NCBI GenBank assembly: GCA_004431415.1
Contig: QPMI01000453.1
Location: forward strand, 598,330-662,329
Origin: Cyanophora paradoxa CCMP329
Lineage: Eukaryota > Plantae > Glaucophyta
Direction of reading: 5' to 3'
Length of the DNA stretch: 64,000 nt
The position numbers and the translations under genes were made by a program. The notes below the pieces were generated by a model. It made no database searches, was not told the DNA's origin, and was given only the letters and a program-made list of their open reading frames with translations. Shown piece by piece: positions 3,257 to 61,822 of the stretch. Position 1 is the first letter of the stretch. Each line of letters starts with the position of its first letter.

Positions 3257-6069
3257 CGCGCGGGCCGCCGCCGCCCGCGGTGGACCCGGCGCCTCGCCCT
3301 CGCCGGCGGCTCGCCTCGGGGCCGGGGCCGGTGCCGGCGCGGCGGCCGCCGGGGGCGTGGCGGCGAGCCAGGAGCTCGTCCGGGCCTCCCTCGCGTCGGA
3401 CAGCAAGCTCATCTTCCCGGACGGGCGCATCCAGACCCTCAAGAAGGGCCAGGGCTTGGCCGGGGCCGGGGCCGGCCCCGCGCAGCAGCAGCAGCTCGAG
3501 AGCTCGCTCCTCCGCATCGGGCGCCCCTCCTCCGACGCAGCCGCTGCCGGGCGGCCCTCGACCCCTTCCGACCCGTTCTCAGTAGGGCAGGGCCAGGGGG
3601 CGGGCGCGCCCCCGTCGACCCCTGGGGCCCGCATGCTCGCCGCGTTCGCGGGGGAGAGCCGCCCCCTCTCGGCCGCCCTCCCCTCCTGGACAACCCGAGT
3701 GGACGTCGGCGTCTCCCGCATCCCTACCCCCGGCGCAATGCCCCCCCCGCCCCCGGCCTCCTCGTCCAGATCGGCCCCCGCCTCCCCCGCCGGCCGGGCC
3801 TTCGAGCTACCCCCCTACGACCCCTCCCGCCCGCCCTCCGCGCCCCTCCCCTCCCACTCCGACGTCCTGCCGTACCCCCGCGCCCCCGCCGCCGACGCCC
3901 GGCCCCCGACGGGGTACGCCCCCCCTCTCTCTCTCTCTACCCCCCCCCCTTCTGAATCTTTCTCGCGCAGGGCCGGCGTGGGCCTCGCCTCGATCCCGGA
4001 GGGCGGAAGCGCGCACGGGAACGCCGACGCCGACTCCGACCCGCTGCTGGAGGACACGGGCGGCCAGCGGCTCTCGGCGATCCTCCGGTCCATCGAGCGG
4101 CGCATGAAGGCGCCCCTCGAGGTCGAGCTCCCGCCTGGACCTAGGGCCGCCAACGACGACGACGCCGAACTCCGGTCGCTCCGCGCCTCTTTGGACGCGT
4201 CGCTGGCGGCCGCTGCGGCCGCCACCAACGCCCTCGCGCTCGCCTCGTCGCCCCTCGCCGCCGCCGCCCCGCCCTCCCCGGCCCACCGCGGCCCTCCCAT
4301 CTCCGTCTCTCCCTCCTCCGCCCGCGCCGGCTCGGCCGCGGCGCCCGCGCGGGCAGCGACGGCGGCGTCCCCGCACGGCGCGGCGGCGGGCCCGGCGGCG
4401 CGCTCGCCCCACGGCGGAGGTGGAGGCGGAGGAGGCCCATCGTTCTTCCTGCAGCCGGGCGAGTCGGCGGCGCAGACGATGGAAGCCATCCGCGCCCGCA
4501 CGCCCGAGCCGCGCCCCGCCTGGGGCGCATCTTCCCCCTCCGCAGCAGCAGCCGCCGCCGCCGCGGCCCCCGCCGTCCGCGCCAGCGGACACTCGGACTG
4601 GGGCGAGGCCGAGGAGCTGGACCCTGTACCCCACGGCGACGGGGACATGCCCGGCCGGCCCGCCACGGGCGGCGCCGCCTCTTCACGGCCCCTCACCCGC
4701 GCCGGGAGCCGCCCGGGTACGGCCGAGGACCGGCCCTACACGCCCTTCTCGGTCGAGGGGGAGGGAATGGACGAGGCCGGGGGTACCGGCGGCTCCCCCT
4801 CGGGGTACCGGGGTCGCGCGGAGTGCGCCGAGCGCCCTTCGAGCGCCTCCCGCGCGTCTCTGTACGCCGAGGACCCGGCGCTGAGGCCCCTGACCGCCGC
4901 CTCGGCCGCCTCCTCTTCTTCGCTATGGCGGGACACGGCCCCGCGCCACGCCTCCGTCGGCGCTCCGGCCTCGTCCACAGTGGGCGGCGGAGGCGGCGCC
5001 GGCGCCGCCGCCGCGACCGCGACCGCGACGAGCCTCTGGGGCAGCGGGCCCCTCGCGGCGCCCACGCTCTCCTCCGTCGGCCTCGGCGCCCCCTCCTCCT
5101 CCTCGGTGCCTTCCTTCCCTGCCTTCTTAACGAACGAACGAACAATCAAACAAACAACTAAACAAAGCCTTCATAGCCTTCTTAACACCTTCCTATCTTC
5201 CTTCTTCCTTCCTAGCTTGTCCTGACCGCGCCCGCTTCGCACTCGTGCAGAGCTCGGGACGGCGCCCGGCGCCCCGCGGGAGCGAGGGCATCGCGCAGGC
5301 GCTCGGCGGCCGCGGCCCTTCCTCTTCTTCCTCGGGCTACGGCGGCGTCGTCGGGGAGGGATCGGCCCCGGCGCGCCGCCCGCGCGGGTCGTCGTCGCCC
5401 CCGCGCCAGTCCGCCTCCCGCGGGCGCTCCCGCGGCGACGTCGATGCCGCCCCTTCTTCCTCTTCCTACCTCGCCCCGCCCTCCTCCTCCTCGTCCTCCT
5501 CCCGCCCCCGCGCCGTCTCTCCGACGCCGCAGGCACCCTCCTCCTCCTCGCGCGGCGGGCGCCCCTCCGCCGCTGCGCGCGAAGCCCCCGTCTCGCCGCC
5601 GGGCCCGGGTACCCCTCTCCGCCCCACCTCTGCCTCCGACGTCCTCGCCGCCGCCGCCCGCGCCGCTGGCGGCGCCGCCTCCTCGTCCCGATCGCTGTAC
5701 CCCCCGCGGTCCCCGGAGAGCCGGCCGTGGTCGGGCGGGGACCGCCCGGCGCCGCGGCGCCTGGACAACAGCGACCTGCTCGCCAAGTACGACGAGGTCC
5801 AGAGCGCCCTCGCCCGCGCCGCCGCGGCCCGCGCCGAGGCCGCCACGTCCCGCCCCACGACCGCCGCCTCGGACAGCGGGCGGCCCAAGACCGCCCGCGG
5901 GCGTACCCCCGAGGGCGCCAGGCCCTCCCTAGGCCTGGGTGGGGACGAGACCCCGGGCCAGGGCCAGCGGGTGGTGCTTAGCGCCCGCGCGGGGCCCAGG
6001 CCCTCCGGGGGCGCCACCCGTGTGGACGACGTCCTCGCCTTTGTGGGGCCGCGCATCGCCGCGCCCTGA
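1204..6069 (+). CDS. Large low-complexity coiled-coil protein, CCDC66/CSPP1-like (centrosome/cilium), multi-exon
   Basis: MEAIPRARSFG...RKKAYAQEL followed by QQREMQEALQRQIEEKKRRTEEEKRERARREAEEEARLQRQQEEL resembles the CCDC66-domain coiled coil. The rest is Pro/Ser/Ala-rich, and exon boundaries are approximate. Confidence 0.55.
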
Positions 6070-28917: not shown

Positions 28918-29649
28918 GGAGGCCCTGAGGGTCGGCCAGGTCCCACCGTCCCCGCCAGGAGAGAGCAGCGATTGCGGACACACTCAGTGTGACAGAACAT
29001 CGAGACTCGGGCTATGATCCATCATCGTCATACCTCCGGCGGTCCTCCGCTGTGCCTCAGAGTAGGGTTTTTTACATATATATAAATCAGACTAAATTTT
29101 GTAAATCTGGTGGAATTTTCTAGCGGTTTTCATAAATGTCTAGGCGTCGACCTAGCAGGTGGCTGCAGGTCGGCCTAGGTCCGGGAATTTCGGCAGGGGA
29201 TTTCCGGGAATCCGGCCGCCAGCTCTCGCGGCCGGATCGCACGCGCTCTCCGGTCTCTCTGCAGCCTGAAACGCACGTTCGAAGTCCTCGAAAGCCCGCG
29301 CGGCTCGTCTTCTTCTCAGGCGCGGGGCCCCGCGAGCGCCTGCGTCCCGGCCCGCGCCCCGGCCCGTCCGCCTACAGCCTCGCCCTCTCGCACACGCACT
29401 CGGCGTAGTACTTTCTCACCGCGGTACGCTTAGTCCGCCCCCGCGCGCACTCCCCGCGCCGCGCGCGCCGTCGTCTCCTTCGCTGACACTCGCGACTCCG
29501 CTCGCCCCGCTGCAGCCAGCGCCGCACGACGCGCGCCCGACCGCGTACCACATCAATGCTCTGCGCACTCTTCGAATCCACGTTCATCGTCCCCCGAGCC
29601 CTCTTCTGCGCCGCGACCCGCTGACCGCCCCGTGCAGCCCCGGCCGCTG

Positions 29650-31480
29650 CCGCGCGCGGGGCCGGCGGGCGGGCACGGGGCGGGGCGGCGCTCACCCGCT
29701 CCCTGCGGCGCAGCTGCGCGGCGTAGCGCCGGTGCTGGCGGGGGCGGACGGCGGCGATCGGGGGGCCCGCGGCAGGTGCGCCGCGCGCCGGGCGGGCGGC
29801 GGGGCCGGCCCTAGCGAGCGGGGCCCCGCGGGCCCTCCCTGGGGAGGGCCCCGCGCGGGGCCGGCGGGCGGGCGAGAGGCGGGGCGGCGCTCACGCGCTT
29901 CCCGCGCGGCAGGTGCGGGGCGGCGCAGCGGCGATGGCGGCGGCGGCCAGCGGCGATCGGGGGCCCGTAGCAGGTGCGCCGCGCGCCGGGCGGGCGGCGG
30001 GGCCGGCCCTAGCGAGCGGGGCCCGCGGGCCCTCCCTGGGGAGGGCCCCGGCGCGGGCCGGCGGGCGGGCGAGAGGCGGGGCGGCGCTCACGCGCTTCCC
30101 GCGCGGCAGGTGCGGGGCGGCGCAGCGGCGATGGCGGCGGCGGCCGGCGGCGATCGGGGGCCCGTAGCAGGTGCGCAGCGCGCCGGGCGGGCGGCGGGGC
30201 CGGCCCTAGCGAGCGGGGCCCCGCGGGCCCTCCCTGGGGAGGGCCCCGGCGCGGGGCCGGCGGGCAGGCGAGAGGCGGGGCGGAGCTCACGCGCTTCCCG
30301 CGCGGCAGGTGCGGGGCGGCGCAGCGGCGATGGCGGCGGCGGCCGGCGGCGATCGGGGGCCCGTAGCAGGTGCGCAGCGCGCCGGGCGGGCGGCGGGGCC
30401 GGCCCTAGCGAGCGGGGCCCCGCGGGCTCTCCCTGGGGAGGGCCCGGCGCGGGGCCGGCGGGCAGGCGAGAGGCGGGGCGGCGCTCACGCGCTTCCCGCG
30501 CGGCAGGTGCGGGGCGGCGCAGCGGCGATGGCGGCGGCGGCCGGCGGCGATCGGGGTGCCCGCGGCAGGTGCGCAGCGCGCCGGGCGGGCGGCGGGCCGG
30601 CCCTAGCGAGCGGGGCCCCGCGGGCTCTCCCTGGGGAGGGCCCCGGCGCGGGGCCGGCGGGCAGGCGAGAGGCGGGGCGGCGCTCACCCGCTCCCTGCGG
30701 CGCAGCTGCATGACGTAGCGGCGGTGCTGGTGGCGGCGGACGGAGGCGCTCGGGGGGCCCGCGGAAGGTGCGCCGCGCGCCAGACAGGCGGCGGGGCCGG
30801 CCCTAGCGAGCGGGGCCCCGCGGGCCCTCCCTGGGGAGGGCCGCGGCGCGGGGCCGGCGGCGGACGAGAGGCGGGCGGAGATCACGCGCTTCCCACGCAG
30901 GTGCGGGCGGCGCGGCGACGCTGGCGGGGCGGCCGGCGGCGATCGGAGGGCCCGTAGCAGGTGCGGCGCGCCGGGCGGGCGGCGGGGCCGGCCCTAGCGA
31001 GCGGGGCCCGCGGGCCCTCCCTGGGGAGGGCCCCGCGCGGGGCCGGCGGCGGGCGAGAGGCGGGGCGGCGCTCACGCGCTTCCGCGCGGCAGGTGCGGGG
31101 CGGCGCAGCGGCGATGGCGGCGGCGGCCAGCGGCGATCGGGGTGCCCGCGGCAGGTACGCAGCGCGCCGGGCGGGCGGCGGGCCGGCCCTAGCGAGCGGG
31201 GCCCGCGGGCCCTCCCTGGGGAGGGCCCCGCGCGGGCCGGCGGGCGGGCGAGAGGCGGGGCGGAGCTCACGCGCTTCCCGCGCGGCAGGTGCGGGGCGGC
31301 GCAGCGGCGATGGCGGCGGCGGCCGGCGGCGATCGGGGGCCCGTAGCAGGTGCGCAGCGCGCCGGGCGGGCGGCGGGGCCGGCCCTAGCGAGCGGGGCCC
31401 CGCGGGCTCTCCCTGGGGAGGGCCCCGGCGCGGGGCCGGCGGGCAGGCGAGAGGCGGGGCGGAGATCACGCGCTTCCCCG
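29650..31480. repeat. GC-rich tandem satellite, ~197-bp unit, about 9 copies
   Basis: The anchor CCCTAGCGAGCGG recurs near 29809, 30007, 30204, 30403, 30600, 30801, 30991, 31187 and 31383. Confidence 0.95.
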
Positions 31481-31789
31481 CCAGCCGATGGTCCCCCGAG
31501 GGCCCTACAAGCTCGCGTCGACGCATGAAGATTCTTAATGTGGCCTGGGTCTGACCGCTGTGCGCGCAGGGACCCACACCCCCTGCCCCCGCCGCCCCCT
31601 GCACCCGGTACCCCTGGTGCGAGCCCCGCGCCGTGCTCCAGCTAGACCATGGCCTTCTTCCTTCGACGCGTCGACAAGCGCGTCGACGCGTAGAGATGAT
31701 TCCTTCTTCGAATTGTAGATATACGCATGTGTGACGCATGTGCAACGCATATGCAAGGCATGCGCAACGCATGCGCAGTGCACGTGTGT

Positions 31790-32997: not shown

Positions 32998-33092
32998 ACA
33001 CATATTGAAAAACGAATTTAAATCCCTCGTTCATCTCGATCGCTTCGCGATCTCGATTCACTCTGGATTTAAATTCGTTTTTCAATATGTGT
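32998..33092. other. Left terminal hairpin: 28-bp perfect stem around a 39-nt insert with inner stem GATCGC-ttc-GCGATC
   Basis: ACACATATTGAAAAACGAATTTAAATCC (32998-33025) is the exact reverse complement of GGATTTAAATTCGTTTTTCAATATGTGT (33065-33092). Confidence 0.9.
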
Positions 33093-33782
33093 TAATTTAA
33101 TACAAAAATACATATTTATCGATTAATTTCTTTAACTTTTTATGCAAACTTTGTATAAATTAATGCAAACTTTGTATTAAAATGATAAACGCGTTTAATT
33201 TAATGCATATTCACGATTGATTCAATCGATATTATATCGATAGATTATGTTCTTTGTCGATTACATATATAACTTCGATTGATTAACATTAAACTACTTA
33301 AAGAACGATATAATCGCGATTAATTCGCATAAATTCGCATAAATTCGCATAAACTCGATATATCTCATCGGTATTGAAGTAGACCACCGCCCATTTTGTA
33401 TCGGAAAACGCAAAAACTGTCACAGAGTTGCATTATGTCCAATTAAACAATCGATGGGATTGCGGATTTACATTTTTGCACCGAAAAAGTGTCACAGAGT
33501 TGCATTATGTCCAATTAAACAATTGAGAAGATTGCGCGATTTTCTATTGGAATATATCGGAACTGCATCATGTCCAATTAAACAATCGATGAGATTGCTG
33601 ATGAACATTTTTGCATCGAAAAACTGTCACTGAGTTGCATTATGTCCAATTAAACAATCGATGAGATTGCATATGTTCTATAAAACAGAATAATTGAGAT
33701 CAAGTGTGACAGGTAGTATTCAAATGATATTCAGTAAGAGATAGTTTTGTTTTTGAGAAAGTCAGTAAGAGGGGTGGAATGT

Positions 33783-34223
33783 CTGTGACGCCTGTGACGG
33801 CTGTGACGCCTGTTTTCAGAAGTCTGTCATTTTTGAAAATTTTAAAAAGTTTGAAAGTAGGTGTCACAGGCGTCACAGGCGTCACACTCAATTAAATTAG
33901 GTGTCACAGCGAAATTGCAGACCATTTCCAGTAAGACAACTTCGCATTTTCGGAAAGGTGGATTAATGGATAGTGTTTTGTAGGTGTCAGAGGTGTCACA
34001 AGACGGATTTCAGTAAGACAAGAATATATTTTTGAATATCTCAGTAAGAGAAAGAGATTCCATTTTTAATTGGGTGTGACGCCTGTGACGGCTGTGACGG
34101 CTGTTTTAAGAAGTCTGTCATTTTTGAAAATTTTAAAAAGTTTGAAAGTAGGCGTCACAGGCGTCACAGGCGTCACAGTCAATTAAAGAGGCGTCACAGT
34201 CAATTAAATAGGTGTCACACCCG
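33783..34223. promoter_or_regulatory. Two inverted-iteron modules in the left TIR (putative replication origins)
   Basis: Each is (TGTGACGSC)x3, a ~50-bp AT-rich spacer, then (GGYGTCACA)x3-5; located at ~33783-33909 and ~34066-34223. Function is inferred. Confidence 0.6.
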
Positions 34224-34278
34224 ATTATCTGACCATTTTCAGTAAGACCATCTGAAATTCTGAATTTCTCAGTGTCAA

Positions 34279-34680
34279 CTAACTCGGAAATCGCAATACT
34301 CTATGTTTCTCCGATTTCTCCAACCCTGAAAACACACCTGTTATTCTCTCATCTATCTCATGAGATACTCTCGTGGTTTTCCTCTCTGCTTCTAATCCAC
34401 AACTGAATATATCAATCGCCAACATACCTTCATTTGAGTAACAATGAGCAGTGCAATGGCTCTCATCCAGCAGAAGAACCATTGCAAAACCAGGAGGAGA
34501 AATACCACCATCGAAAATCTCGCAATGCTTGTGAACTACTCGAATACCTTGCTCTTGAATAATAGTTTGCAAGAACTGCATTAACCACCTGGTTGTTGTC
34601 TCCAAGTCCTCCATTCCTACTGCTAATTGGGTTCTGAATTTGTAATCCAGCATCACATGGAAGCCTCGATGAGTATTCAT
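34279..34680 (-). CDS. speD: Prokaryotic-type pyruvoyl-dependent S-adenosylmethionine decarboxylase proenzyme (AdoMetDC family)
   Basis: 133 aa; GFHVMLD...GFAMVLLLDESHCTAHCYSNEGMLAIDIFSCG retains the E-S autocleavage site, the HxxxH motif and the catalytic Cys. Confidence 0.9.
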   Translation of the reverse strand: MNTHRGFHVMLDYKFRTQLAVGMEDLETTTRWLMQFLQTIIQEQGIRVVHKHCEIFDGGISPPGFAMVLLLDESHCTAHCYSNEGMLAIDIFSCGLEAERKTTRVSHEIDERITGVFSGLEKSEKHRVLRFPS

Positions 34681-45209: not shown

Positions 45210-46625
45210 CTATTTCCTCTGCCCTCTTCGTAGATTGAATCGAGTTTGGGGTGCAGTATATGTTTCTTTGGTGGTTGAAAAGTCATTATACCACCTCTGA
45301 CTGTTGACTTCTGATAATTTCTGGGTTCCTGCTATGGTCAACTTCTTTAATTCTTTCTCTACTCTACCCTTCTTTTGTGCTCTTGCTTCTGTGAGGGTTC
45401 TTTTGGTATTTCACTTGCTTTTTCTATGCCCTCCTTTCTGATTGCTGAATCAACCCTGGCTTCCTCCTTTGCCTGTTCAAGAGCATCCACTGTGGGAGTT
45501 TCATGATACTCAACACCTTTAATGGGCAGCAGTTCATGAAAAGCGAATCTACCATCAACTATCTCACCACTGGGACTTCTGATTCTGAACTTGAAGCCCT
45601 CTCTGCCCTCCACACTATAAACAATTCGAGACCAATTAACCCCTTGCTTTGCAAATGGATTCTTTTCAACTTTCACTCTCACAAACATTCCAGGTTTCAG
45701 GGCATCAAGATACTCAATCGATTTCTTGAATCTCTGATCCTCCATATTCACTATCTCTTTGTAGTGGGCTTCTGTGGTCTCTGCTGGTTTTCTCTTGGTT
45801 GCAGAGTGAATGGTATTATTATAATTATACTCAATATCACCCAACACATCAAAAAATCGTGCAGTATTATTTGCAATGCAGTAGTTTGTGATCAATCTCT
45901 TGATCTGTCTGTTAAAGGCTTCAATTCGACCTTGGGTTCTGTGATCTGCAACATCACTTAGTTGATGCTCAATGAATTTTGTTCCCAAATAATCTGTGAA
46001 CAACACATTGGTAAATTCGCTTCCACTGTCACTCTGAATGCGAACAATTGGTCTGGGGACTCTCTGTTCAAGTTGCTTGAATGCTGCAAGTGTAGTAAGA
46101 GCACTCTTGTCTCTCATTGGAATTATGAACCCTGTTCTCAGGGTTGACTCCATTGCACTCATAAATGTATCATAACCATCATTCTGCTTTTTGTATGCAG
46201 GAAAGAAGAGCAGATCAATCACATAGGTATCAAGGGGTTGCCTTATTGGAATCATGGGATCTCTCTTTCGAGATAGGGTGGGTGCATTAATCTGGACGAC
46301 CTCCTGCTTATCATACCACTCTCTCATCTTCTTGTAGTTCTCCTCTGGTAGTTCCTGTCTCATTGCAGTAATCCCTTGTAGCCTGTCCTGGGATCATAGA
46401 ACTTCTTAGCAATCTTCGACTCTTTTGGTGCTGTCTCAGCTGGGAGGGTCTCTGGATTAATTGCTTGACCATCTCTGATCTTTTCAATATTCGACTGCTC
46501 TTCTCCTCCACTGGAACTGTGATGGGCAGGATATTCCCTCGATCTTCAATTGCCTCTTTTCTTACAATTCTGGGTGGTTGTCTCAATCCTATTTGTGTAG
46601 AAGGCATCTTTACCTTATCTCTCAT
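45210..46625 (-). CDS. Retroviral-like (rve) DDE integrase of Polinton type, frameshifted near both ends
   Basis: Core ORF 45359-46363: YVIDLLF...RIQSDSGSEF...QGRIEAFNRQIK...YNNTIHSATKRKP. An upstream frame adds KFYDPRTGYKG. Confidence 0.92.
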
Positions 46626-46790: not shown

Positions 46791-49700
46791 TTAGAGCCCA
46801 AATGGAATGCTGTGAATTCCATCGTCTAATATCTTCCTTTTGCTATCGAGTTGGTTTAGAGCCACCCTTCTGCTCTCCAAATCATATAGGTTGTGGTCTT
46901 GCCTTCGCTTGTTTACTACTGCTACTGTTTTGGTGATGCCTTCAAACAGGCATCTCTTGAAATCATCAAAGTGAACCTCTTTGGAGGAAGTCCCAGACAT
47001 CTTTATTTTATCAAAGGTCTCAGTTCTGAAAGCATAGAGTTTCGATCTCAGACCTACATACTCCACAATCTTTGCATTTGGAAACTCGTTTTTATATTTA
47101 CCTGGAATCAAACGATTGCTCCTATCAAAGAGAGGGTGGGTGGGATCATAATTACTGCAATCCAGGTGTCCAGCAATTCGCTTCATCTCATTATTTAGAT
47201 CATTGGTATGCAGCAGGAGACAGAAAGAATCTGTATCATGGAATAGTAGCTCTGCTGTTTCCCAAGTTCTCCTCACCACATCATAAAAGAACCTGCTATT
47301 GTGGAGTTTCGCGAAATCCAGCACAAAAGCACCAATTGCAACAGGTTTATCTAAGTGAACATGCTTGGAATACATCTCAAAGGCAACAGCATTTTCGTTT
47401 AATACATTGGTTGCCTTGATGAGTGGACTTGCAGCATATTTCTTGCAAAGTTTCTCACTGTTTGCAATCTTTACCACAGAGCGACCCCTGCATGATTCGA
47501 GGCATTTACCATAGATTGCATTGTTCATTAATTTAAAGAAGTCACTCTCGAATCTGGACATAGATTGGCGCCTCAGTTTCGTATTTAGATCAATATAACT
47601 CTTCATGAATGCAGAGGTTGCAAATGAGAGAACCCTGTGAACCTTCGTGATTATAATACCTTTGCTCACAAGATAGATCAAGAGAGGTTGGGAAATCACA
47701 TAGTTATTTTGGGTGAGAATGTTGCAGTGAGTTTGGGGTCTTTGCTTATCTTCTCACCTGTGATATCCAGTAACTTTCTTTGATACCCACCCAGCATTTC
47801 GGTGGTGACATGTCTTTATTAACTACAAGTGGAAAATCGTAATGATCTGTGAGAGTTTGTGGGTATTCCAGGTCAACTTCAATAAAGGCACTTCGTCCTT
47901 GGGTCTCTTTAAGTGCCTCTGAGACATCTTCCCATCGAAAATCTCCAATGGGCAGTTCTTGACTGAGAGCAAAACCATACAGATTATTTGCATCCAAGAG
48001 AACTATATGGTCATCTGGGTTTTCCACCTTTGCATATCGAGTAGGCATTGTAGCAAACCCACCTCGAATTGCTCTCTCAATGAATTCGTATTGCCCTACA
48101 TCACTGATCTGCTCGATCTTTGCTCTGGTATAAATGAGCATTGCATCCCAGGATAATCCAGGAGCCGAAACATAGTGGGCAGGATCCAATCCATATTGGG
48201 AAAACGCCAATTCTCGGAAAGTCTGGAATTTACTCATAAGATCACCAGAATCCACTGCCTGGAAGTCCATGAAGTGCGAAGCATCTATGAATTTCCACAT
48301 GCCCCATTGCAGGGAGAGGTATTGATCGAAATTCTTGCTCAGGATCTCAACACGAAGTTTATCATCTTGCTGTGCAATTTTGCGGAATATTTCGTGTCCA
48401 CATTCATCCATGTGATCCACCACAATTGCTACTTTCGTTTGCTTTGAGATTCTCCTGTGGAGGTTGCAGTTTCGACATGCTTTTCCAATAAAGCTCCTGA
48501 TTGATGACAATGGTCTCTACTGGGAAATTCTCATGGGTAAATCGTTCAGCACAGATATAACAGTGTTTAGTGATCTTGTATTGTGCTTTCTGCTCTTCTG
48601 TGAGTGGGTGCATTGGAATATTGGTGAATAGAGTGCGGATTACTTGGGGTCTGATCTCTGTGAGAGTGGTAAACAGAGCACCAAGTGGATCTGATCCCTC
48701 GAAATAATGAGAGATCACCTCATCCCCCATCACAACTGTTAGAGAAACCGATTTTACCTCTCTCTTGCTGCGGTTCTCATCAATTGGAACCGAGTGACTA
48801 TCCATTTTCACATAGCAGATAGTGGGAAGCCACACAGTTTTGCGAAGATGTTGAAGCCCAAATGCAATGTGACTTCCAGATTTGGGCATTTACCTTTGCT
48901 CTCCCTCCAATCAATGCAGCGATTGCTTCTAATGAATCCAGCTTCTCCTGAGTTCTGAAACGAGACAGGCAGGTCTCACATAATAAATGCGACCATCATG
49001 GGCTTTATCAAAGGTGGTTTTCAGAGTCGACTCAGAGACATATGGTGATATAATGCCTCTATCATCCTCTTCGTTTTCGATTAATAAAAGGTTAATCTTG
49101 GTCTTTCTCCTCGGGTTGCTGGATTGTGAGAGGATAGAAGCACTGTGCTTGATTATCTGCACCATAAATGTTGATTGAGTTCAGGGTTCTGCTCCTCAAA
49201 TCGATCAATGATTCTGCATCACAGGCAACTGGAAACTGGATGCCTTCGAAATTGAGTTCGTTTAACCATCTTCTATACTGGCTGGGTTCATTGCTCTTGT
49301 GTTTATTAATGTCTTTCGGTGCAGGTAAGCCAAGATTGCATACTTGAAGCAGTCTTGACCATCAATATTCTTGACATTCACAGTTGCTCTCTTTATCCAA
49401 TCCACTCAGGTGTTGAGAAGAAGCAACCACCCACAGGAGCATAAGACATTATACCACTCTCAGCATCTCATGCGATCCAGTCTGTAACTGTCACCTGCAT
49501 CATCTGTTCCTGCATTGCTTGAAGTGCATTTCGCAGTTCAACATCAATATTTCGTGATCTTGTGATGACAAAGTAATCACTATAAATGAATTGGTGATCC
49601 ACACCCTTGGATCACTCACTTTGGTGAATTACAAATGAAGGTCAACCGAGTCTTAATTGCTCTCAGGTCTTGGAGTTTCTGTCTGAGTCTCTGGGTAGAG

Positions 49701-50038
49701 TAGTGCAATTCTCTCCAAGAATTCAATCCCATCTTGGATAACCTCCCCTCTTGCTCGATAGGTAACCAAGAGTATGCTTTGTTCATTGCTTCCCCATCTT
49801 CAATCTCGGTTCAATTGTCCCAACCTTAAACCTTCATCCCTGAATTCCTCCATTTCTCAAAACGATCATAAGCGATTGTAATTTCTGTGAGTTGAGATAA
49901 TCTTGGTCTCCTATCCAGGATTGCTGCCTGGCGATCATATTCGAATTCTGTAATATCACCAGTAACTAAAAGGGTTCCTAAAAGACCGAGTATTTCGTTT
50001 TTCTTTTCTTTGATGATTCTATTTGATTGGCGGGGCAT
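46791..50038 (-). CDS. Protein-primed family B DNA polymerase (Maverick/Polinton type), split by multiple frameshifts; N-terminal limit uncertain
   Basis: RATVNVKNIDGQDCFKY, HCYICAERF...CRNCNL (endo VII-like Zn finger), YGLDPAHYVSAPGLSWDAML, AIRGG, LLDANNLYG, FFKLMNNAIYGK, FHDTDSF and GLRSKLYA. Confidence 0.92.
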
Positions 50039-50425: not shown

Positions 50426-50585
50426 TTAATTGGGTGTGACGCCTGTGACGCCTGTGACACCTGTTTTCAGAGGTTTGTAGATTTTTGAAATTTTAAAAAG
50501 TTTGAAAATAGGCGTCACAGGCGTCACAGGCGTCACACTCAATTAAAAAGGTGTCACAGCTGTCACACAAACCATTTACAGTAAG
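50426..50585. promoter_or_regulatory. Internal inverted-iteron module (putative origin), a diverged copy of the TIR module
   Basis: TTAATTGGG(TGTGACGCC)2TGTGACACC, AT-rich spacer, (GGCGTCACA)3CTCAATTAAAAAGGTGTCACAGCTGTCACAC. It lies just past the helicase stop codon. Confidence 0.7.
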
Positions 50586-50604
50586 TTTTTAAAAAATAAG
50601 AAAT

Positions 50605-52996
50605 TCAATCAGTATTAGAATCGATTCTGTTTTGTTTACTCATCCCACCTTCAACATCACTGTCATCCACCAACTTGCGACTATGCTTCTTTTTGATCCC
50701 AAAGTAGCCACGAGCAAGAACACCATTGACTCGCTTTCTCTCAGCCTTCACATTAAAGACTTCGCGAAGTCTCTTCAAGATAGTGCATTCTGTGATTTTC
50801 TCATCAGATTTGCCCATGTGATCATCTTAAAGTGACTGATAATGGACTCACTTGTGGCGAAATCCCCTTGACTCTTGGTGAGTTCATAACTCTCACGAAT
50901 CCATTCTCCAATCTTGTCATTCTCATTGAAATATTCAACACCTTGATCAACAATGGACTGGGGTGGTTTGGTGACGAATTCATTGAGAGAATGGGTTCTC
51001 CACATTTCCAGGAGAATGGACATATGCGCCATTTTATAATCGTCATCATTCTTCATTAGGCGCATGAGAGTGGTGTCTGCTTTCTTCTCACCAGGCTGAG
51101 GATCGACCTTGAAGACATTTTCGAATCGGTAGTAGATAATTCGCCTTTGAATTGCTGCATCTGGTTTACTGATTCCCAAGTTGTCATTTGTGGACAAGAA
51201 CAACTGGAACATGGGAATGAATGTAACAAGATCTTTGAAAAGAGCTCGAACCTTCATCTCATTCCCACCAGTAACCTGTTTGATTTTGTTCAGTTGAAGC
51301 ATATCACCATCTTCTGCTTCATTACTGAAAACAATTCGTTTACCAAGAATGCAAGCGAGTTCTGGGGAAGCCTCTGACGAACTCTTCTTGGGTTTAGTCC
51401 AATATGTCATGTCCAGTGACCCATAATACTCACCAAATGTGTCTTTCACCAACTCTTGGAGCAGTGATTTCCCATTTGCTCCAATTCCAGTCCAGCAAGT
51501 GTATCTCTGATTTTCTGTCAAACCACTCAGGGCATAGGCGATTAATCCCAGCATGAATTCGCGGTCTGTATCCGATTCAATAATATCTGCATAGATGGAT
51601 TTAATCTTTGCAACCTTCTCTTGGTCAATTTCTGTGGTGTAATCGTAGCCAACAGTCTTACTCACCATATCATCTGGGAGTCCCTGTCGAAAAGTCATGG
51701 AGTTCAGGTCAAACACACCATTTGTAAATCCAATGATGTTGGGAACAGTATCAAGTCTCTCGAAAAAGGTCTTGTCACTGAACAGAACTGAAAGATCAGA
51801 CATAAGTGCAGTTCTGTATGTAGTCTGTTTGAGGCTCTTAGCAATTCCCAGCAGAATCTTTGACCTTTCCTCCAAGGAATTGCGGTTCTCTTCATCACGA
51901 AGTGCTCTCTGTGCGAGTTGAACAGAACGTTGAAGATAAACTGGACAGACCTTGCAGCTCAAACAGAGAAAGATTCGCTTCCCAGTTTCATCCATCTCCC
52001 AAATCCCACATACATCATTGAACTTGAACCAGGTCTTGTTGGAATACTTGTATTTGTCTTGCAGAACAAGATAGGCAACCTGTGCAACATCATAATGGGC
52101 ACCATCAGATCCAGCAGACCGATCAATCAGATTTTCGATCTTCACATCTGTCTCTTCCTTCACACGAACTGTGATGCTTCGCTTTTTGCAGTTTGCACTG
52201 TAACTCGAAACAATATATTTGTCCTTCTCCTTCCCTTGAACAATATACCAATTGTTCGAGTCATGGCTTCCCTTGCAGCAGGGACAGATCAGACCTTTGT
52301 TCTCAGCAGTGAAATTGTATCCCATCTTGGTCTCATTGATGATTGTGGGCAAGATGAAACCGAATTCTTCCAGTTTAGAAAGAATATGTTTCTGCAAATT
52401 CTCCTCAGCGCACCTCTCAAAATAAGAATGTGCACCTTTGGGAATTCGTAGTTGTCAACAATCCACTTTTGCAACTCAGCAGTAGGTTCATTTAACTCAC
52501 ACTCAGATGCCCATGGCTCTCTGATCCATGTTTTGTTGGGACTTGGACAAACATTAATTACCCCAGCAGTCCCAGTGGATGCAATCGTTTTGCAGTCGAT
52601 CTTGGGGTTTCCTTTGAATGCACCTGCTTTATCCCAGATCTTAATGGTGTCGAATTCAGCAGGTCGAGCGAAATAAGCATGATATCCTTTTTTGGTTTTA
52701 GCAAGTGGATTAACACCACCGAAATCATCAGGGAATTGCTCCTCGAATTTGGCGAAATCCTCCTCTTGGTCGAAGTCAATAACCATGATATTACGAGCAA
52801 GAATGCCCCAAGCAGTATATTTACCGGATTTCAGGGCTTCATCGAATTTATCCCAAGTCCAGGATCCGTCTTTATGAGCGAAAAGCGGTCTCTTGGTATC
52901 AGGATCAACAGGAATTACGAGATTCTCAGACAGGACATCGTCTTCACGAAGCCAGTCAACAAGGCGTTTCAGGGATTTCTTGGCGGCAGCGTTCAT
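50605..52996 (-). CDS. Bifunctional primase-polymerase (Prim-Pol/AEP) fused to a D5/P4-like SF3 helicase, with two frameshifts
   Basis: N-terminal WGILARNIMVIDFD...KTKKGYHAYF; Zn finger CPCC..HDSN; IGFTNGVFDL; Walker A GIGANGKS; Walker B IVFSNE; FLSTND; C-terminal RVNGVLARGYFGIK in ORF 50605-50817. Confidence 0.9.
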
Positions 52997-54642: not shown

Positions 54643-55425
54643 TTACAAACCTCTCTTATATCGCATCAGTTTATTCGAATGAACACCACTCTTGACCTCT
54701 TTGGGTGCTTCCTCTTTCTGTGGAGATGGTAGTTCATCTTCTTTCTTTTTGGGCTTCCTGTGGAACCGAGGAAATGGGAAATCTTTGACCAGATCCGCTT
54801 TATCAACATAATAGTTCACCGAATAATTTGCAGAAGACCACACAATATATTGGTAAGAGTGCACATACTCCTCAAACATCTTATAGAAATCGTCCTTGTT
54901 TCGCATGATATTATATTCCTCTTCAATGGCTTCGAGTTCTTTGCGATTTGCAGCACTCAGGAACACAGCATAATCCGAATTTACTCGAATTGTTGAAGAA
55001 ACCTTCCTCAGCTTCTGTGTGATGCAGATAATCGAGATTTTCGAATGGCGACCTCTGGAATAAAGAGATCCCACGATTTTGTCTCGGGTCAAATCAATGA
55101 TTTCGTTGTCTATTAGATCATCTAAGACCACACACAGGTGATTGACAGGTTCCCCTTTTTCGATTTTCTCCTGCCTTTCATCCAGTAATTTGGAAATGTA
55201 AGCAGCATCCCATTTCCCGAGTTGCAATGTTGCAACTGCATCCCAGAAATGATTGAAGGACGTCCCACTCACAACAAGAACAGTATCAATCTTTTTCGCA
55301 TCATGCAGCTGTTTCAACCAATATTTCACACATTCTGACTTGCCTGTTGCAGACTTTCCTATGAAAAGAGCACGAAATGGTGGGGTTATCATCTCAGATG
55401 CAACAAATTCTTCTAAATCGTTCAT
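54643..55425 (-). CDS. A32/FtsK-HerA family genome packaging ATPase
   Basis: Walker A FIGKSATGKS, Walker B LCVVLDD, and SRGRHSKISIICITQ...IRVNSDY. Confidence 0.93.
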   Translation of the reverse strand: MNDLEEFVASEMITPPFRALFIGKSATGKSECVKYWLKQLHDAKKIDTVLVVSGTSFNHFWDAVATLQLGKWDAAYISKLLDERQEKIEKGEPVNHLCVVLDDLIDNEIIDLTRDKIVGSLYSRGRHSKISIICITQKLRKVSSTIRVNSDYAVFLSAANRKELEAIEEEYNIMRNKDDFYKMFEEYVHSYQYIVWSSANYSVNYYVDKADLVKDFPFPRFHRKPKKKEDELPSPQKEEAPKEVKSGVHSNKLMRYKRGL

Positions 55426-56542: not shown

Positions 56543-57913
56543 TTATAGATTGATTCGCCTCAGGCCGTCCTTATCGACTATAATGAAACTGTGCATGAGA
56601 GCACGAACATTAACAGTGATTGTCTGGTCAGAAGGCATGTATAGAGTGAGGAAAGAGGAGGAGGAGTTCGTGAGATCAACATAGCCAGACTGGGCAATGT
56701 TGCGAATCGCTTTCTCTCCATCAACACAGAATGGTAGACCACTGAGGACATATTTGTCTGCAACCTTGTCCATATTTGAGCACTTGAAGGCATCCGCAAT
56801 TAATTCGGCACCTTTGAGGAGAGGGATGGGCTCAGTAGCATAGAGACGTTGACCATTAATTTCAACAGTGAAAGTAATGTCTTTTGAGTTAGCATGCGTT
56901 TTTAGGACACTGTGGGAACCATTGAAACCATCTATACCTGCGGCATCACGAACTGAAACAAGAAGACCATAGACAAGACCAGAGATCTGTGACAGGTTAA
57001 TACGATTTGGCTGAGCATTGCCTTTTGCAGCAAAATTGACACTGTCTACGAAACCAATATCCAGAGCAGGAATAGCCATACCAGTGGTCTTCACCTTCTC
57101 AATGACAGTAGCAAACAGTTCATCAGAAACATTAATAGCATGCATGTAAAGACGAGGAGAAGTGACTTTAATTTCGGGGGTTGTTCCAGAGATGGTGAAA
57201 GTGGTGATTTGTTGACCAACATGGGCAAGAGTAGCATTAGCAGTAGCACCAAGTCCATCATCCTCTGTCTTATCAGCAGCTGTTCCACCAACAACTGGAA
57301 GAGCACGACCACCATAAGAAGTCTCAACATAACCCTTTCCAGCATCCTTGAACCAGACAGTTACCACCATTTCTCCTGAGAGAGCACCAAGAGGTAGGTA
57401 GTGGTTTAGCCATGGGACTGGGATTTCAACAAAGAATGAACCACCAAGTCGGTTGGTTCCATGAGCAGGGATACCATGAACCATTCCCATTGAACGCTTC
57501 TTCTTGGCGAGTTGATCCTCACTGTAATAGATAAGAGGGAAATGAGCAAGGAAATCAGAAGGCACATGGAATGTGTAAGATCCATAGGTGATTTCAAGTC
57601 GAGAGACAAGAGCACCAACTGGGCGAACGTATCCATTGCGAACAAGGTCGGTATCACCAGCAAAAGTGACAGCTGGAAGGTCAAACGCAAGTTCGAGTTT
57701 TCCACAGAAATTGTAGCGAGGGAGCTTGAACGAAATGCGATTTCCAGCATTATTCTCGAAAGTGTTGCTTGGGTTCACAACAACAAGAACTGGCTTCGAC
57801 TTGGATTCAAGACCAAGCATGAGAGAGTTGTCCAGGAAGAACGCCTTGGCTTCTTCCGGGGTTGTTAGAGCTTCTTTCAGAGAAAGACGTTGGAGGGTCG
57901 AAGTAATATCCAT
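56543..57913 (-). CDS. Major capsid protein (double jelly-roll), ~456 aa, intact
   Basis: Size and position between the ATPase region and the pentons; NAGNRISFKLPRYNFCGKLELAFDLP...GALVSRLEITYG resembles DJR N-termini; QSGYVDLTNSSS near the C-terminus. Likely start is MDITS at 57913. Confidence 0.8.
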   Translation of the reverse strand: MDITSTLQRLSLKEALTTPEEAKAFFLDNSLMLGLESKSKPVLVVVNPSNTFENNAGNRISFKLPRYNFCGKLELAFDLPAVTFAGDTDLVRNGYVRPVGALVSRLEITYGSYTFHVPSDFLAHFPLIYYSEDQLAKKKRSMGMVHGIPAHGTNRLGGSFFVEIPVPWLNHYLPLGALSGEMVVTVWFKDAGKGYVETSYGGRALPVVGGTAADKTEDDGLGATANATLAHVGQQITTFTISGTTPEIKVTSPRLYMHAINVSDELFATVIEKVKTTGMAIPALDIGFVDSVNFAAKGNAQPNRINLSQISGLVYGLLVSVRDAAGIDGFNGSHSVLKTHANSKDITFTVEINGQRLYATEPIPLLKGAELIADAFKCSNMDKVADKYVLSGLPFCVDGEKAIRNIAQSGYVDLTNSSSSFLTLYMPSDQTITVNVRALMHSFIIVDKDGLRRINL

Positions 57914-59003: not shown

Positions 59004-59933
59004 ATGATTCGGCTGGTCAATATAGATAGCAGAGACCGATCAGATGGACAAATAGAAAACTCCTACAAAGTTTCACTCACAACCCCAGTGACCAAACCAA
59101 GAGAATGTCGAGTTTTGTATGCAGAGATCCCCAACAGCATCTATAACTCCATTGGAACAGACCACCTTCTTGTCAGATTCTACTACCAAGGCATCTCTGA
59201 AACCAAGCAGGTCTTCCTTCTCCCAAGTGGTTACATAAATCAAGGTCATTTCGGGTCACCACTCCATATAATTATGGTCTGAATTTCACATTTACTGGGA
59301 GCAACAATCTCACATATGCATTCAAGGTCTACTACAACCCTACCTCCTACAAATTGGAGTTTTACAGTAATGTTCAATTCGATATGGTTGCATCTACACA
59401 GAGATTGGGTAAACTTCTTGGTGTGAGTTCAGTGGAGTGGGTGGCTTCCACTGAACAGATTTACGATTTCCCAGAGTCTGCAAGGTCTTTATATGCCCCC
59501 GAGAATTTCCTTTATTTCGCAGGAATACCAATCACCCAAACCATCCCCAATGGGGAATCACATTCACAGGATATGAATTCGAGGCATCTCGCTTAAACTA
59601 CAAGTTAGAAGCTTCCAAGATGACAGATATGAATGCAGAACAGTATTTATACATGCACATTAAAGAACTCTCCCCATTTGCTACAAACCACAATATTGTC
59701 CCACAATCTCAACCACAGAATCAAGGAGCGATTCTCAGATTGCAATTAAGTAAAGATATTGGACAGTATGTTTATCACAGTGGAGAGCACAGTGAATACA
59801 TAAAAATAACCGATCGAACCTTGTGATTAGAGAGTTAACAGTTGAGTTTCGCGATTATTATGGTGATCTTGTAGATATGAATGGAATTGACAACTCATTC
59901 CAGTTAGAGTTCTTGGCTATTGGTAATGATTAA
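59004..59933 (+). CDS. Minor capsid (penton-like) protein 2, several frameshifts
   Basis: MIRLVNIDSRDRSDG...SYKVSLTTP...VLYAEIPNSIYN...QYLYMHIKEL...IRELTVEFRDYYGDLVDMNGIDNSFQLEF. Confidence 0.8.
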
Positions 59934-60219
59934 ACCGATCCTGATAGAAGAACTCCCCATCTGTCTCGAAAATATTAAGAATGGGACTCTTTCGATCTTC
60001 TGTATACCATCGGCGAATTGTCTTATCCCATTTAGCACCATTCTTTTTCAAGAATCTACAAAGAGTTGATCTCCTTGTAATTCGCAATCCCATCTCTTGA
60101 AAGATCTCATAATGATCTTGTATTCTTTTCACAATCAAGATGTAAGTCCCATGGAAATTGTGATATTGCTGGTTAATCGGCATGTTTCCTTTACAGCATG
60201 ATGGGAAATCGTTTGTCAT
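59917..60219 (-). CDS. Hypothetical protein with a GAKWD-x4-WY motif (DUF5710-like)
   Basis: FLKKNGAKWDKTIRRWY. Likely start is MTNDF at 60219, just outside the right TIR. Confidence 0.45.
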   Translation of the reverse strand: MTNDFPSCCKGNMPINQQYHNFHGTYILIVKRIQDHYEIFQEMGLRITRRSTLCRFLKKNGAKWDKTIRRWYTEDRKSPILNIFETDGEFFYQDRFNHYQ

Positions 60220-60230
60220 TTTTTGGCGAA

Positions 60231-61822
60231 ACGAGAGTATCTCATGAGATAGATGAGAGAATAACAGGTGTGTTTTCAGGGTTGGAGAAATCGGAGAAAC
60301 ATAGAGTATTGCGATTTCCGAGTTAGTTGACACTGAGAAATTCAGAATTTCAGATGGTCTTACTGAAATGGTCAGATAATCGGGTGTGACACCTATTTAA
60401 TTGACTGTGACGCCTCTTTAATTGACTGTGACGCCTGTGACGCCTGTGACGCCTACTTTCAAACTTTCTAAAATTTTCAAAAATGACAGACTTCTGAAAA
60501 CAGCCGTCACAGCCGTCACAGGCGTCACACCCAATTAAAAATGGAATCTATCTCTCTTACTGGGATATTCAAAATATATTCTTGTCTTACTGAAATCCGT
60601 CTTGTGACACCTCTGACACCTACAAACACTATCCATTAATCCACCTTCTCGAAAATGCGAAGTTGTCTTACTGGAAATGGTCTGCAATTTCGCTGTGACA
60701 CCTAAATTAATTGAGTGTGACGCCTGTGACGCCTGTGACGCCTACTTTCAAACTTTTTAAAATTTCAAAAATGACAGACTTCTGAAAACAGGCGTCACAG
60801 CCGTCACAGGCGTCACAGACATTCTGCCCCCCTTACTACTCTTCTCAAAAACAGAAATATATCTTACTGAATATCATTTGAATACTATCTGTCACACTTG
60901 ATTTCATTTATTCTGTTTTATAGAACATCTGCAATCTAATCGATTGATCAATTGGAGACCATGCAACTCTGTGACACCTAAGTTATTGAGTGTGACGCCT
61001 GTGACGCCTGTGACACCTACTTTCAAACTTTTTAAATTTTCAAAAATGACAGACTTCTGAAAACAGGCGTCACAGCCGTCACAGGCGTCACAGCCGTCAC
61101 AGGCGTCACAGACATTCCACCCCTCTTACTGACTTTCTCAAAACAAAACTATCTCTTACTGAATATCATTTGAATACTACCTGTCACACTTGATCTCAAT
61201 TATTCTGTTTTATAGAACATATGCAATATAATCGATTGTTTAATTGGACGTGATGCAGTTCCGATATATTCCAATAGAAAATCCGCAATCTGATCGATTG
61301 TTTAATTGGACATAATGCAACTCTGTGACACTCTTTCGGTGCAAAAATGTAAATCCGCAATTCCATCGATTGTTTAATTGGACATAATGCAACTCTGTGA
61401 CAGTTTTTGCGTTTTCCGATACAAAATGGGCGGTGGTCTACTTCAATACCGATGAGATATATCGAGTTTATGCGAATTTATGCGAATTTATGCGAATTAA
61501 TCGCGATTATATCGTTCTTTAAGTAGTTTAATGTTAATCAATCGAAGTTATATATGTAATCGACAAAGAACATAATTTATCGATATAATATCGATTGAAT
61601 CAATCGTGAATATGCATTAAATTAAACGCGTTATCATTTTTAATACGAAGTTTGCATTAATTTATACAAAGTTTGCATAAAAAGTTAAAGAAATTAATCG
61701 ATAAATATGTATTTTAGTATTAAATTAACACATATTGAAAACGAATTTAAATCCAGAGTGAATCGAGATCGCGAAGCGATCGAGATGAACGAGGGATTTA
61801 AATTCGTTTTTTCAATATGTGT
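60231..61822 (-). repeat. Right terminal inverted repeat (1592 bp) with three iteron modules and a terminal hairpin at ~61728-61822
   Basis: Reverse complement of the left TIR, with an extra ~275-bp duplicated block (~60693-60968 vs ~60969-61250). Ends ...TTCAATATGTGT. Confidence 0.95.

Follow-up and report, generated by a model that had tools for sequence, protein, structure and literature searches.

How does a linear DNA element that encodes both a protein-primed polymerase and a primase-helicase start its replication? The question arises from the window analyzed here, a stretch of 64,000 nucleotides from Cyanophora paradoxa CCMP329 (contig QPMI01000453.1, positions 598,330 to 662,329), in which a block of short opposed repeats lies directly behind a primase-helicase gene and recurs in the ends of the element that carries it. 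The element spans 28.8 kb (32998–61822) at ~40% GC, between flanks that are mostly 55–80% GC, and is bounded by terminal inverted repeats (TIRs) of 1.4 and 1.6 kb (Table 1). Its TIRs, its size within the 14–40 kb range of PLV/Maverick-type elements, its shift in GC from the host and its gene set (an A32 ATPase, a protein-primed family B polymerase, a primase-helicase and an integrase whose rve match falls below the Pfam cut-off) mark it, as judged from the DNA, as an integrated Polinton-like virus (PLV) in a GC-rich eukaryotic genome.

Table 1. Features of the element, in window coordinates; for the modules, the ~105-bp unit is given within its wider repeat block.
Feature	Position	Strand	Remarks
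Left terminal inverted repeat	32998..34374	+	
Left TIR outer module	33783-33887 within 33783..33908	.	785 bp from element end
Left TIR inner module	34074-34178 within 34066..34219	.	
rve-type integrase	45359..46363	-	PF00665 E 0.001 (below cut-off); PHROG transposases E 1e-11
Protein-primed family B polymerase, several pieces	46791..50038	-	PF03175 on 47746-48411; upstream limit inferred
Internal module	50434-50538 within 50426..50567	.	3 iterons, 51-bp AT-rich core, 3 inverted iterons and 2 outer sites
Primase-helicase, C-terminal piece	50605..50817	-	Last helix and wing of winged-helix-like domain (RKRVNG...RGYFGI)
Primase-helicase, middle piece	50775..52325	-	D5_N and SF3 ATPase (PF08706, PF19263), start of C-terminal domain
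Primase-helicase, N-terminal piece	52289..52996	-	Prim-Pol domain PF09250; 49% identical to P0007 N-terminus
A32-like packaging ATPase	54643..55425	-	PF04665
Candidate major capsid protein	56543..57913	-	Size and position only
Right terminal inverted repeat	60231..61822	-	96-97% identity to left TIR
Right TIR inner module	60426-60530 within 60385..60538	.	Inverted relative to left TIR and internal copy
Right TIR middle module	60715-60818 within 60694..60818	.	
Right TIR outer module	60990-61111 within 60970..61111	.	Five iterons on one arm

Despite the rve-type integrase, no target-site duplication of 4–8 bp (5–6 bp being usual for PLV/Maverick-type elements) was found at offsets of -3 to +4 from the element ends (32998 and 61822); the two flanks may stem from different insertions or from a misjoin; many catalogued PLVs lack such a duplication, according to the accessible part of PMC12220804. 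The candidate for the double jelly-roll major capsid protein of a PLV has a single homolog (60% identical), no Pfam, PHROG or PDB sequence match, and a two-sequence fold model with a pLDDT of 33. Other products include fibre-like proteins, a patatin/discoidin protein and a putative HNH-type endonuclease, and the PTR repeats and discoidin domains mentioned for glaucophyte PLVs in the same accessible text (PMC12220804) are likewise present in the element. The polymerase gene has many positions where short-read contigs show additional bases. An Rfam scan of the element gave no matches, and GC skew was set aside as evidence because it is confounded by coding strand. The inner end of the left TIR reaches ~95 bases into the 3' end of an S-adenosylmethionine decarboxylase-like gene (34279–34680), and the right TIR stops just short of an unrelated ORF (60219–60231); host DNA to the left of the element holds an array of ~198-bp GC-rich tandem repeats (29600–31500).

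Six modules of ~105 bp occur in the element: one internal, two in the left TIR and three in the right, the left TIR thus having one fewer. Each is built of three to five nine-base iterons, a 50–51-bp AT-rich core and then inverted iterons, the three inverted units leading into TCAAT(T)A and then one or two additional sites. An earlier note on this DNA had placed one copy past the helicase stop and five in the TIRs, and we found the module at all six places, beyond what shuffling produces: the two-armed pattern occurred six times in the element and in none of 300 mononucleotide shuffles of it, TGTGACGCC with at most one mismatch matched 59 times against 12.6 ± 3.7 expected (a count reached in 0 of 100 shuffles), and the exact 9-mer was present 29 times in the element and never in 35 kb of host flank. 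Set against a threshold of at least two opposed iterons per side, all six modules carry 3–5 per arm, which agrees with the three or more originally noted and extends it to five in the outermost right copy. Two other parts of that description needed narrowing. The nine-base units are real, but only the word TGTGAC is invariant, TGTGACGGC and TGTGACACC variants being common; and the AT-rich core is real, but the letters quoted for it were those of the TIR version. The cores are 73–76% AT, compared with 60% for the element, and only 0.4–1.8% of the element's 30-bp windows are less stable; a AAAATTTTAAAA tract is present in the left-TIR cores.

The internal copy does combine kept iterons with a diverged spacer, as had been claimed. 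Compared with the five TIR copies, its TGTGAC cores differ at 0 of 36 positions, the last three iteron bases at 2–3 of 18, and the spacer at 8–9 of 49 columns (homopolymer gap shifts included). Its arms are symmetric at 40 of 44 positions, an imperfect dyad, versus 33–37 of 44 in the other copies, and its DNA hairpin has a z score of -11.7. The internal copy is likely the older one, from which the TIR copies would have been duplicated and homogenised; because it has the highest symmetry it is favoured as their source, though only mildly, and so is copying from the internal site to the TIRs.

The TIRs hold other repeats as well. In the outer part of the left TIR, ~72-bp units starting TGTCAC(A/T)GAG begin at 33418, 33490 and 33625, and such units, with one TGTGAC site each, form a second TIR repeat type (33418–33700 and 61330–61402). 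A third type consists of CAGTAAG words at 33732–34240 and 60359–61155, some spaced 31 bp; the same word also adjoins the internal module, at 50579. The AT content of the left TIR reaches 75–81% between 33100 and 33300.

The gene beside the internal module is carried on the minus strand (52996–50605) in three pieces, split by two frameshifts in the assembly. Short-read contigs from four of four runs, in each of two sets, show a single additional base at either break; the interruptions are therefore probably errors of the assembly or peculiar to this copy, and the short reads indicate that unbroken copies exist. These contigs have one more additional base near the 3' end, and the true stop may therefore lie some codons away from the assembled one (50605), which leaves 38 bp to the outermost iteron. 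An intact homolog, P0007, one of the closest homologs (P0007–P0011), matches the protein across its Prim-Pol (49%) and helicase (36%) parts, and the structural model of P0007 predicts with confidence a C-terminal helix-helix-hairpin domain whose best matches are ASFV C962R and poxvirus E5/D5. Against the tails of homologs the helicase tail gave a weak match (10 bits), pairwise BLAST and hhalign with the 70-aa tail gave no significant match, and a search with the Prim-Pol region returned P0007 itself only. At least half of the words from the helicase region were present in 19 of the 24 runs listed, all labelled as one organism.

The dyad, the AT-rich core, the protein's domains and the position 3' of a primase–SF3 helicase gene with a winged-helix-like tail bear out the SaPI/P4-like origin architecture that had been suggested. 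The arrangement, read from sequence, argues that the module is probably an iteron origin, to which the element's own Prim-Pol/SF3 primase-helicase would bind. The internal copy adjoins the gene, as a rep-linked origin does, and the five TIR copies lie 10–17 kb from it. The C-terminal winged helix would, to extrapolate from SaPI PriRep5 and P4 alpha, read TGTGAC with its beta-wing; one hexamer would load on each opposed arm through these winged helices, the A/T-tract core would melt, and the Prim-Pol domain would prime.

The closest experimentally tested counterparts are the origins of SaPIs, phage P4 and plasmid pRN1, and the design has so far been demonstrated in satellites of bacterial viruses. 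SaPI origins, as described in the accessible sections of PMC9371898, have 6–12 iterons directly downstream of rep, opposed around an AT-rich centre and bound by the winged helix, and two Rep hexamers are proposed to load on the opposed arrays and melt the core. In SaPI5, PriRep5 uses the wing to read its iterons, and it distorts AAAATTTTAAAA tracts (10.64898/2026.10.17.759575, available part). Like SaPI5, the element has a fused primase–SF3 helicase with a C-terminal winged helix (winged-helix-like in the element), opposed iterons around an AT-rich centre directly 3' of the gene, and A4T4A4-type tracts; the iteron words, TGCAACC in SaPI5 and TGTGAC(G/A)CC here, are related. The dimensions differ, a SaPI origin being ~300 bp with a ~100-bp core and the module ~105–140 bp with a 50-bp core. 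Unlike a SaPI, moreover, the element is eukaryotic, its protein belongs with eukaryotic-virus D5s, it has six copies of the module (five in TIRs), and it also encodes a protein-primed polymerase. Phage P4 has an octamer word, bound by alpha, at ori and crr. It resembles the element in having a winged-helix primase-helicase at repeats, which alpha binds through that winged helix (PMC4234260, in the text available), and more than one repeat block per genome; its primase is of Toprim type, whereas the element's is Prim-Pol (AEP), and the element is linear and TIR-bounded. The Sulfolobus plasmid pRN1 shares the domain order Prim-Pol, SF3, winged helix and a ~100-bp dyad just 3' of the gene, a stem-loop origin at which ORF904 is proposed to load, melt and prime (same excerpt of PMC4234260), but the pRN1 origin lacks iterons and the element's stem is made of them in tandem.

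Searches by DNA pattern alone covered two collections, viral contigs and prokaryotic genomes. The strict pattern matched three times (one viral contig, two prokaryotic genomes), and at all three a D5-type or AAA_25 helicase gene stops no more than ~22 bp away. With a looser GTGAC pattern the matches numbered at least 120, and 80 of these have flanks. Among the matches listed, a gene of at least 150 aa ended within -250 to +400 bp at 60 of 80, and at 42 of 80 that gene is a D5, VapE, AAA_25, DUF927 or Prim-Pol helicase/primase gene (Pfam, E 1e-5); these 42 fall into 38 clusters at 90% identity and 22 at 50%. Eighteen of the 60 genes ending near listed matches had no helicase match at E 1e-5. 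Of the 20 among the 80 listed where no gene ended within that interval, one has a D5 helicase ending 434 bp away (L051), one a giant-virus-type D5 that starts at a distance of 350 bp (L033), and three have helicases 1.3–1.7 kb away (L004, L025 and L062). Generic modules stood behind other genes of giant-virus loci in 2 of 1500 cases.

Does the iteron word go with the protein, a question that the earlier note had also raised? An arginine in the wing suggests that it does among phage and prokaryotic D5s, by a rule that was set post hoc. The element's wing, RKRVNG...RGYFGI, compares with RKRVNG...RMFCGI at a phage locus with GTGAC iterons (L055). An Arg four residues before the conserved Gly is found in the element's helicase and in 17 of 21 GTGAC-linked D5-type phage proteins, as against 8 of 32 scorable unselected prokaryotic D5s (44 loci fetched, 12 unscored) and 5 of 90 scorable eukaryotic-virus homologs (123 rows, 33 unscored). 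At the unselected loci, with a repeat of L003 left out and the rows being related, at least two RTGAC on both sides occurred in 3 of 7 Arg versus 0 of 24 non-Arg loci (p 0.008), and at least one on both sides in 5 of 7 versus 5 of 24 (p 0.02). Rows are related throughout the wing comparison, and the regular expression miscalled L009, L384 and L404, with errors in both directions; among the exceptions, L370 has Arg without GTGAC and L379 has GTGAC without Arg. We take these sequence comparisons as a fair hint that the wing Arg is linked to the GTGAC word. By eye, most unselected bacterial D5-type genes in L368–L411 are followed by iteron dyads, and the word seems to vary with the wing: T with TGTAGC/GTGGCA, I with GAGCA, N with GGGAG.

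Those relatives of the helicase that were retrieved with their DNA mostly lack the module. Three alignment searches with the helicase returned mainly core giant-virus D5 genes, and a 6-mer detector that recovers all six element modules found none behind the helicase relatives (0/78, 0/69 and 0/75). With a 5-mer detector and duplicates removed, the module was absent behind core giant-virus D5 genes (0/197) and partial genes (0/13) and present behind one of four non-core D5 relatives. That one (L284) lies on a contig from a giant-virus bin; its helicase is non-core and D5-type, with Asn at the wing position, and opposed GGAGG pairs surround a 61-bp AT-rich core ~95–180 bp behind the helicase stop at 4020. 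Another non-core helicase, represented by L364 and L365, has no module behind it. At L209 (5159–5510), GTGA/TCAC repeats seen by eye and unscored by the detector flank a long AT-rich stretch behind a helicase, on a contig where we also saw, by eye, an A32-like ORF. Elsewhere, a 421-kb IMG/VR contig has its GTGAC iteron dyad (L033:4001–4090) on the upstream side of a giant-virus-type AEP_C962R/D5 gene, at a distance of 350 bp, in contrast to the 0 of 197 other core D5 genes with one downstream. Single-protein locus searches of viral contigs with the helicase and the capsid candidate gave no match, nor did a search with alignment A7. Among the loci retrieved there was no second element with modules in its TIRs, so amplification into the termini rests on one family.

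The proposal that the helicase and origin were taken as a cassette from a phage or SaPI-type source found no support when the proteins were compared. The helicase matches eukaryotic-virus D5 proteins at E 4e-98 and phage proteins at best at E 5e-23, phage records reach at most 26% identity, and its tail scores better against eukaryotic-virus tails than against phage tails. In a quick tree it falls among eukaryotic-virus D5-type proteins, at an unresolved position, and outside a 17-row phage D5 clade (SH-aLRT 100); eight rows were dropped from this tree for want of a Walker A match, and three that remain, P0021, P0006 and P0005, have long branches and may have been cut wrongly. Tree position, low phage identity and tail scores thus leave capture from a phage or SaPI unsupported, and the cassette is not a SaPI/PICI one in the sense of a phage- or satellite-lineage Rep in a bacterial island. 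A phage domain swap into the tail was rejected on the tail scores. The cassette may have come from another eukaryotic DNA virus. The design common to phages, satellites and the element is, from the sequences compared, more likely old or convergent.

One short-read contig (X3, 50433–50537) matches the internal module without a difference, and another (X1, 50518–51771) runs from the module's right arm through 1.2 kb of the helicase gene. A junction from 50547 to 50416, seen in three of five runs, fits a tandem duplication of the internal module, and a variant of the helicase 3' end with 28 differences in 224 bases starts at the same outer iteron sequence (two runs). Reads cover the module several times as deeply as its flanks, which is no measure of copy number. 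From the right flank (50595), short-read contigs run on into different sequence for at least 255 bases; this continuation points to further module contexts in the host.

Other explanations of the modules have to be set against an origin. The internal copy might be the relic left end of an older 11.4-kb helicase-plus-capsid element, bounded on the other side by the right TIR, with the polymerase/integrase/fibre block added later and with no present role as an internal origin. Its orientation is that of the left TIR, and the accessible parts of two papers offer parallels: helicases stand beside PLV inverted repeats, Gezel-14T has a repeat common to its TIR and an internal site at the far side of its end module (PMC11296320), and repeats bracket one replicase in the two-replicase genomes of polisuviruses (10.64898/2026.10.13.758929). 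We nevertheless think it improbable that the copy is only such a relic, since the copy's similarity to the TIRs is confined to 50426–50585, with none of the ~780 terminal bases kept, since its iteron cores are invariant while the spacer drifts and its dyad is the most symmetric of the six, and since it occupies the standard position of a helicase-linked origin. Relic-end history may in any case be compatible with origin function.

Sub-terminal transposase-type repeats and adenovirus-type packaging repeats are precedents for reading the TIR repeats as integrase or packaging-machinery sites, with the copy at the helicase gene incidental. Five copies out of six have a sub-terminal position, genes for an rve integrase and an A32 ATPase are both present, and single TGTGAC sites also open the ~72-bp outer TIR units; yet over 700 bp separate the modules from the ends, and sites of this kind would explain neither the internal copy and the dyad around an unstable core nor the same word and layout behind prokaryotic helicases, which makes the idea decidedly unlikely. 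A role in transcription, with host bZIP factors binding the module as a promoter or enhancer, is less probable still. Most iterons do contain TGACG, a small ORF and the polymerase gene lie downstream of the internal copy, and the 59917–60219 ORF begins ~170 bp beyond the right inner copy. The invariant word is TGTGAC, however, and 17 of the 56 sites in the TIRs and internal block read TGTGACA; in the left TIR the copies point toward the 3' end of a gene, the modules keep no constant orientation to the genes downstream, no such array stands in the 80 bases ahead of 25 starts, and the same layout in bacteria cannot need bZIP factors.

A further argument against an origin is that an element with a protein-primed polymerase needs no internal priming. 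Internal priming on a linear genome would leave unfinished ends, which the protein-primed polymerase could complete. We give about an even chance to the analogy-based proposal that the TIR copies are sub-terminal origins, 0.7–1.4 kb from each end, from which the protein-primed polymerase elongates and completes the ends; alternatively, helicase loaded near the ends might assist terminal-protein-primed synthesis. Streptomyces linear replicons, which combine an internal origin with terminal-protein-primed end completion (available text of PMC5449611 and PMC4513846), follow the same scheme, as an analogy only, the proteins being unrelated. More tentatively, and with doubt prevailing, the element could be a hybrid replicon with a self-loading primase-helicase, a phage-like wing code, sub-terminal origins in both TIRs and a protein-primed polymerase finishing the ends; origins at both borders could over-replicate and release the integrated copy, and iteron origins could be general, and predictable from sequence, for non-core D5-type replicases of eukaryotic DNA viruses.

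PLV inverted repeats were hypothesised as primase-helicase origins in 2024, in the accessible part of that paper without iterons (PMC11296320). PLV end modules and two-replicase polisuviruses, as far as the available text of the two papers goes, resemble the element in repeats shared between TIR and internal site and in two replicase classes; those portions (PMC11296320; 10.64898/2026.10.13.758929) name no iteron, core or recognition residue, unlike the present analysis. In the end modules described there the helicase abuts the TIR beside a tyrosine recombinase, whereas the present element has its helicase in a central position and an integrase of the rve type. AEP-SF3 genes are common in PLVs (10.64898/2026.06.19.733378; PMC10120064, both in part). 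Our literature search found no iterons reported in PLVs, virophages/Polintons or giant viruses, although supplements (e.g. that of PMC11296320) could show such repeats. As a design, such an origin is commonplace among phages and satellites, and what is new, module copies in both TIRs beside a protein-primed polymerase, rests on one family. The element offers a 105-bp candidate site, a six-base word and one wing residue as handles on how PLV replication starts, and an origin at the modules would suggest a reason for the co-occurrence of a protein-primed polymerase with a primase-helicase in some elements, as well as a function for long repetitive TIRs.

In a separate set of phage contigs, a GTGAC dyad adjoins, by eye, a terminase-small-subunit-like gene and not a helicase stop (L004, L006, L010, L017, L022, L025, L027 and L035, and likewise L043, L046, L048, L056, L069, L075 and L081); three of these 15 contigs have two modules in tandem.
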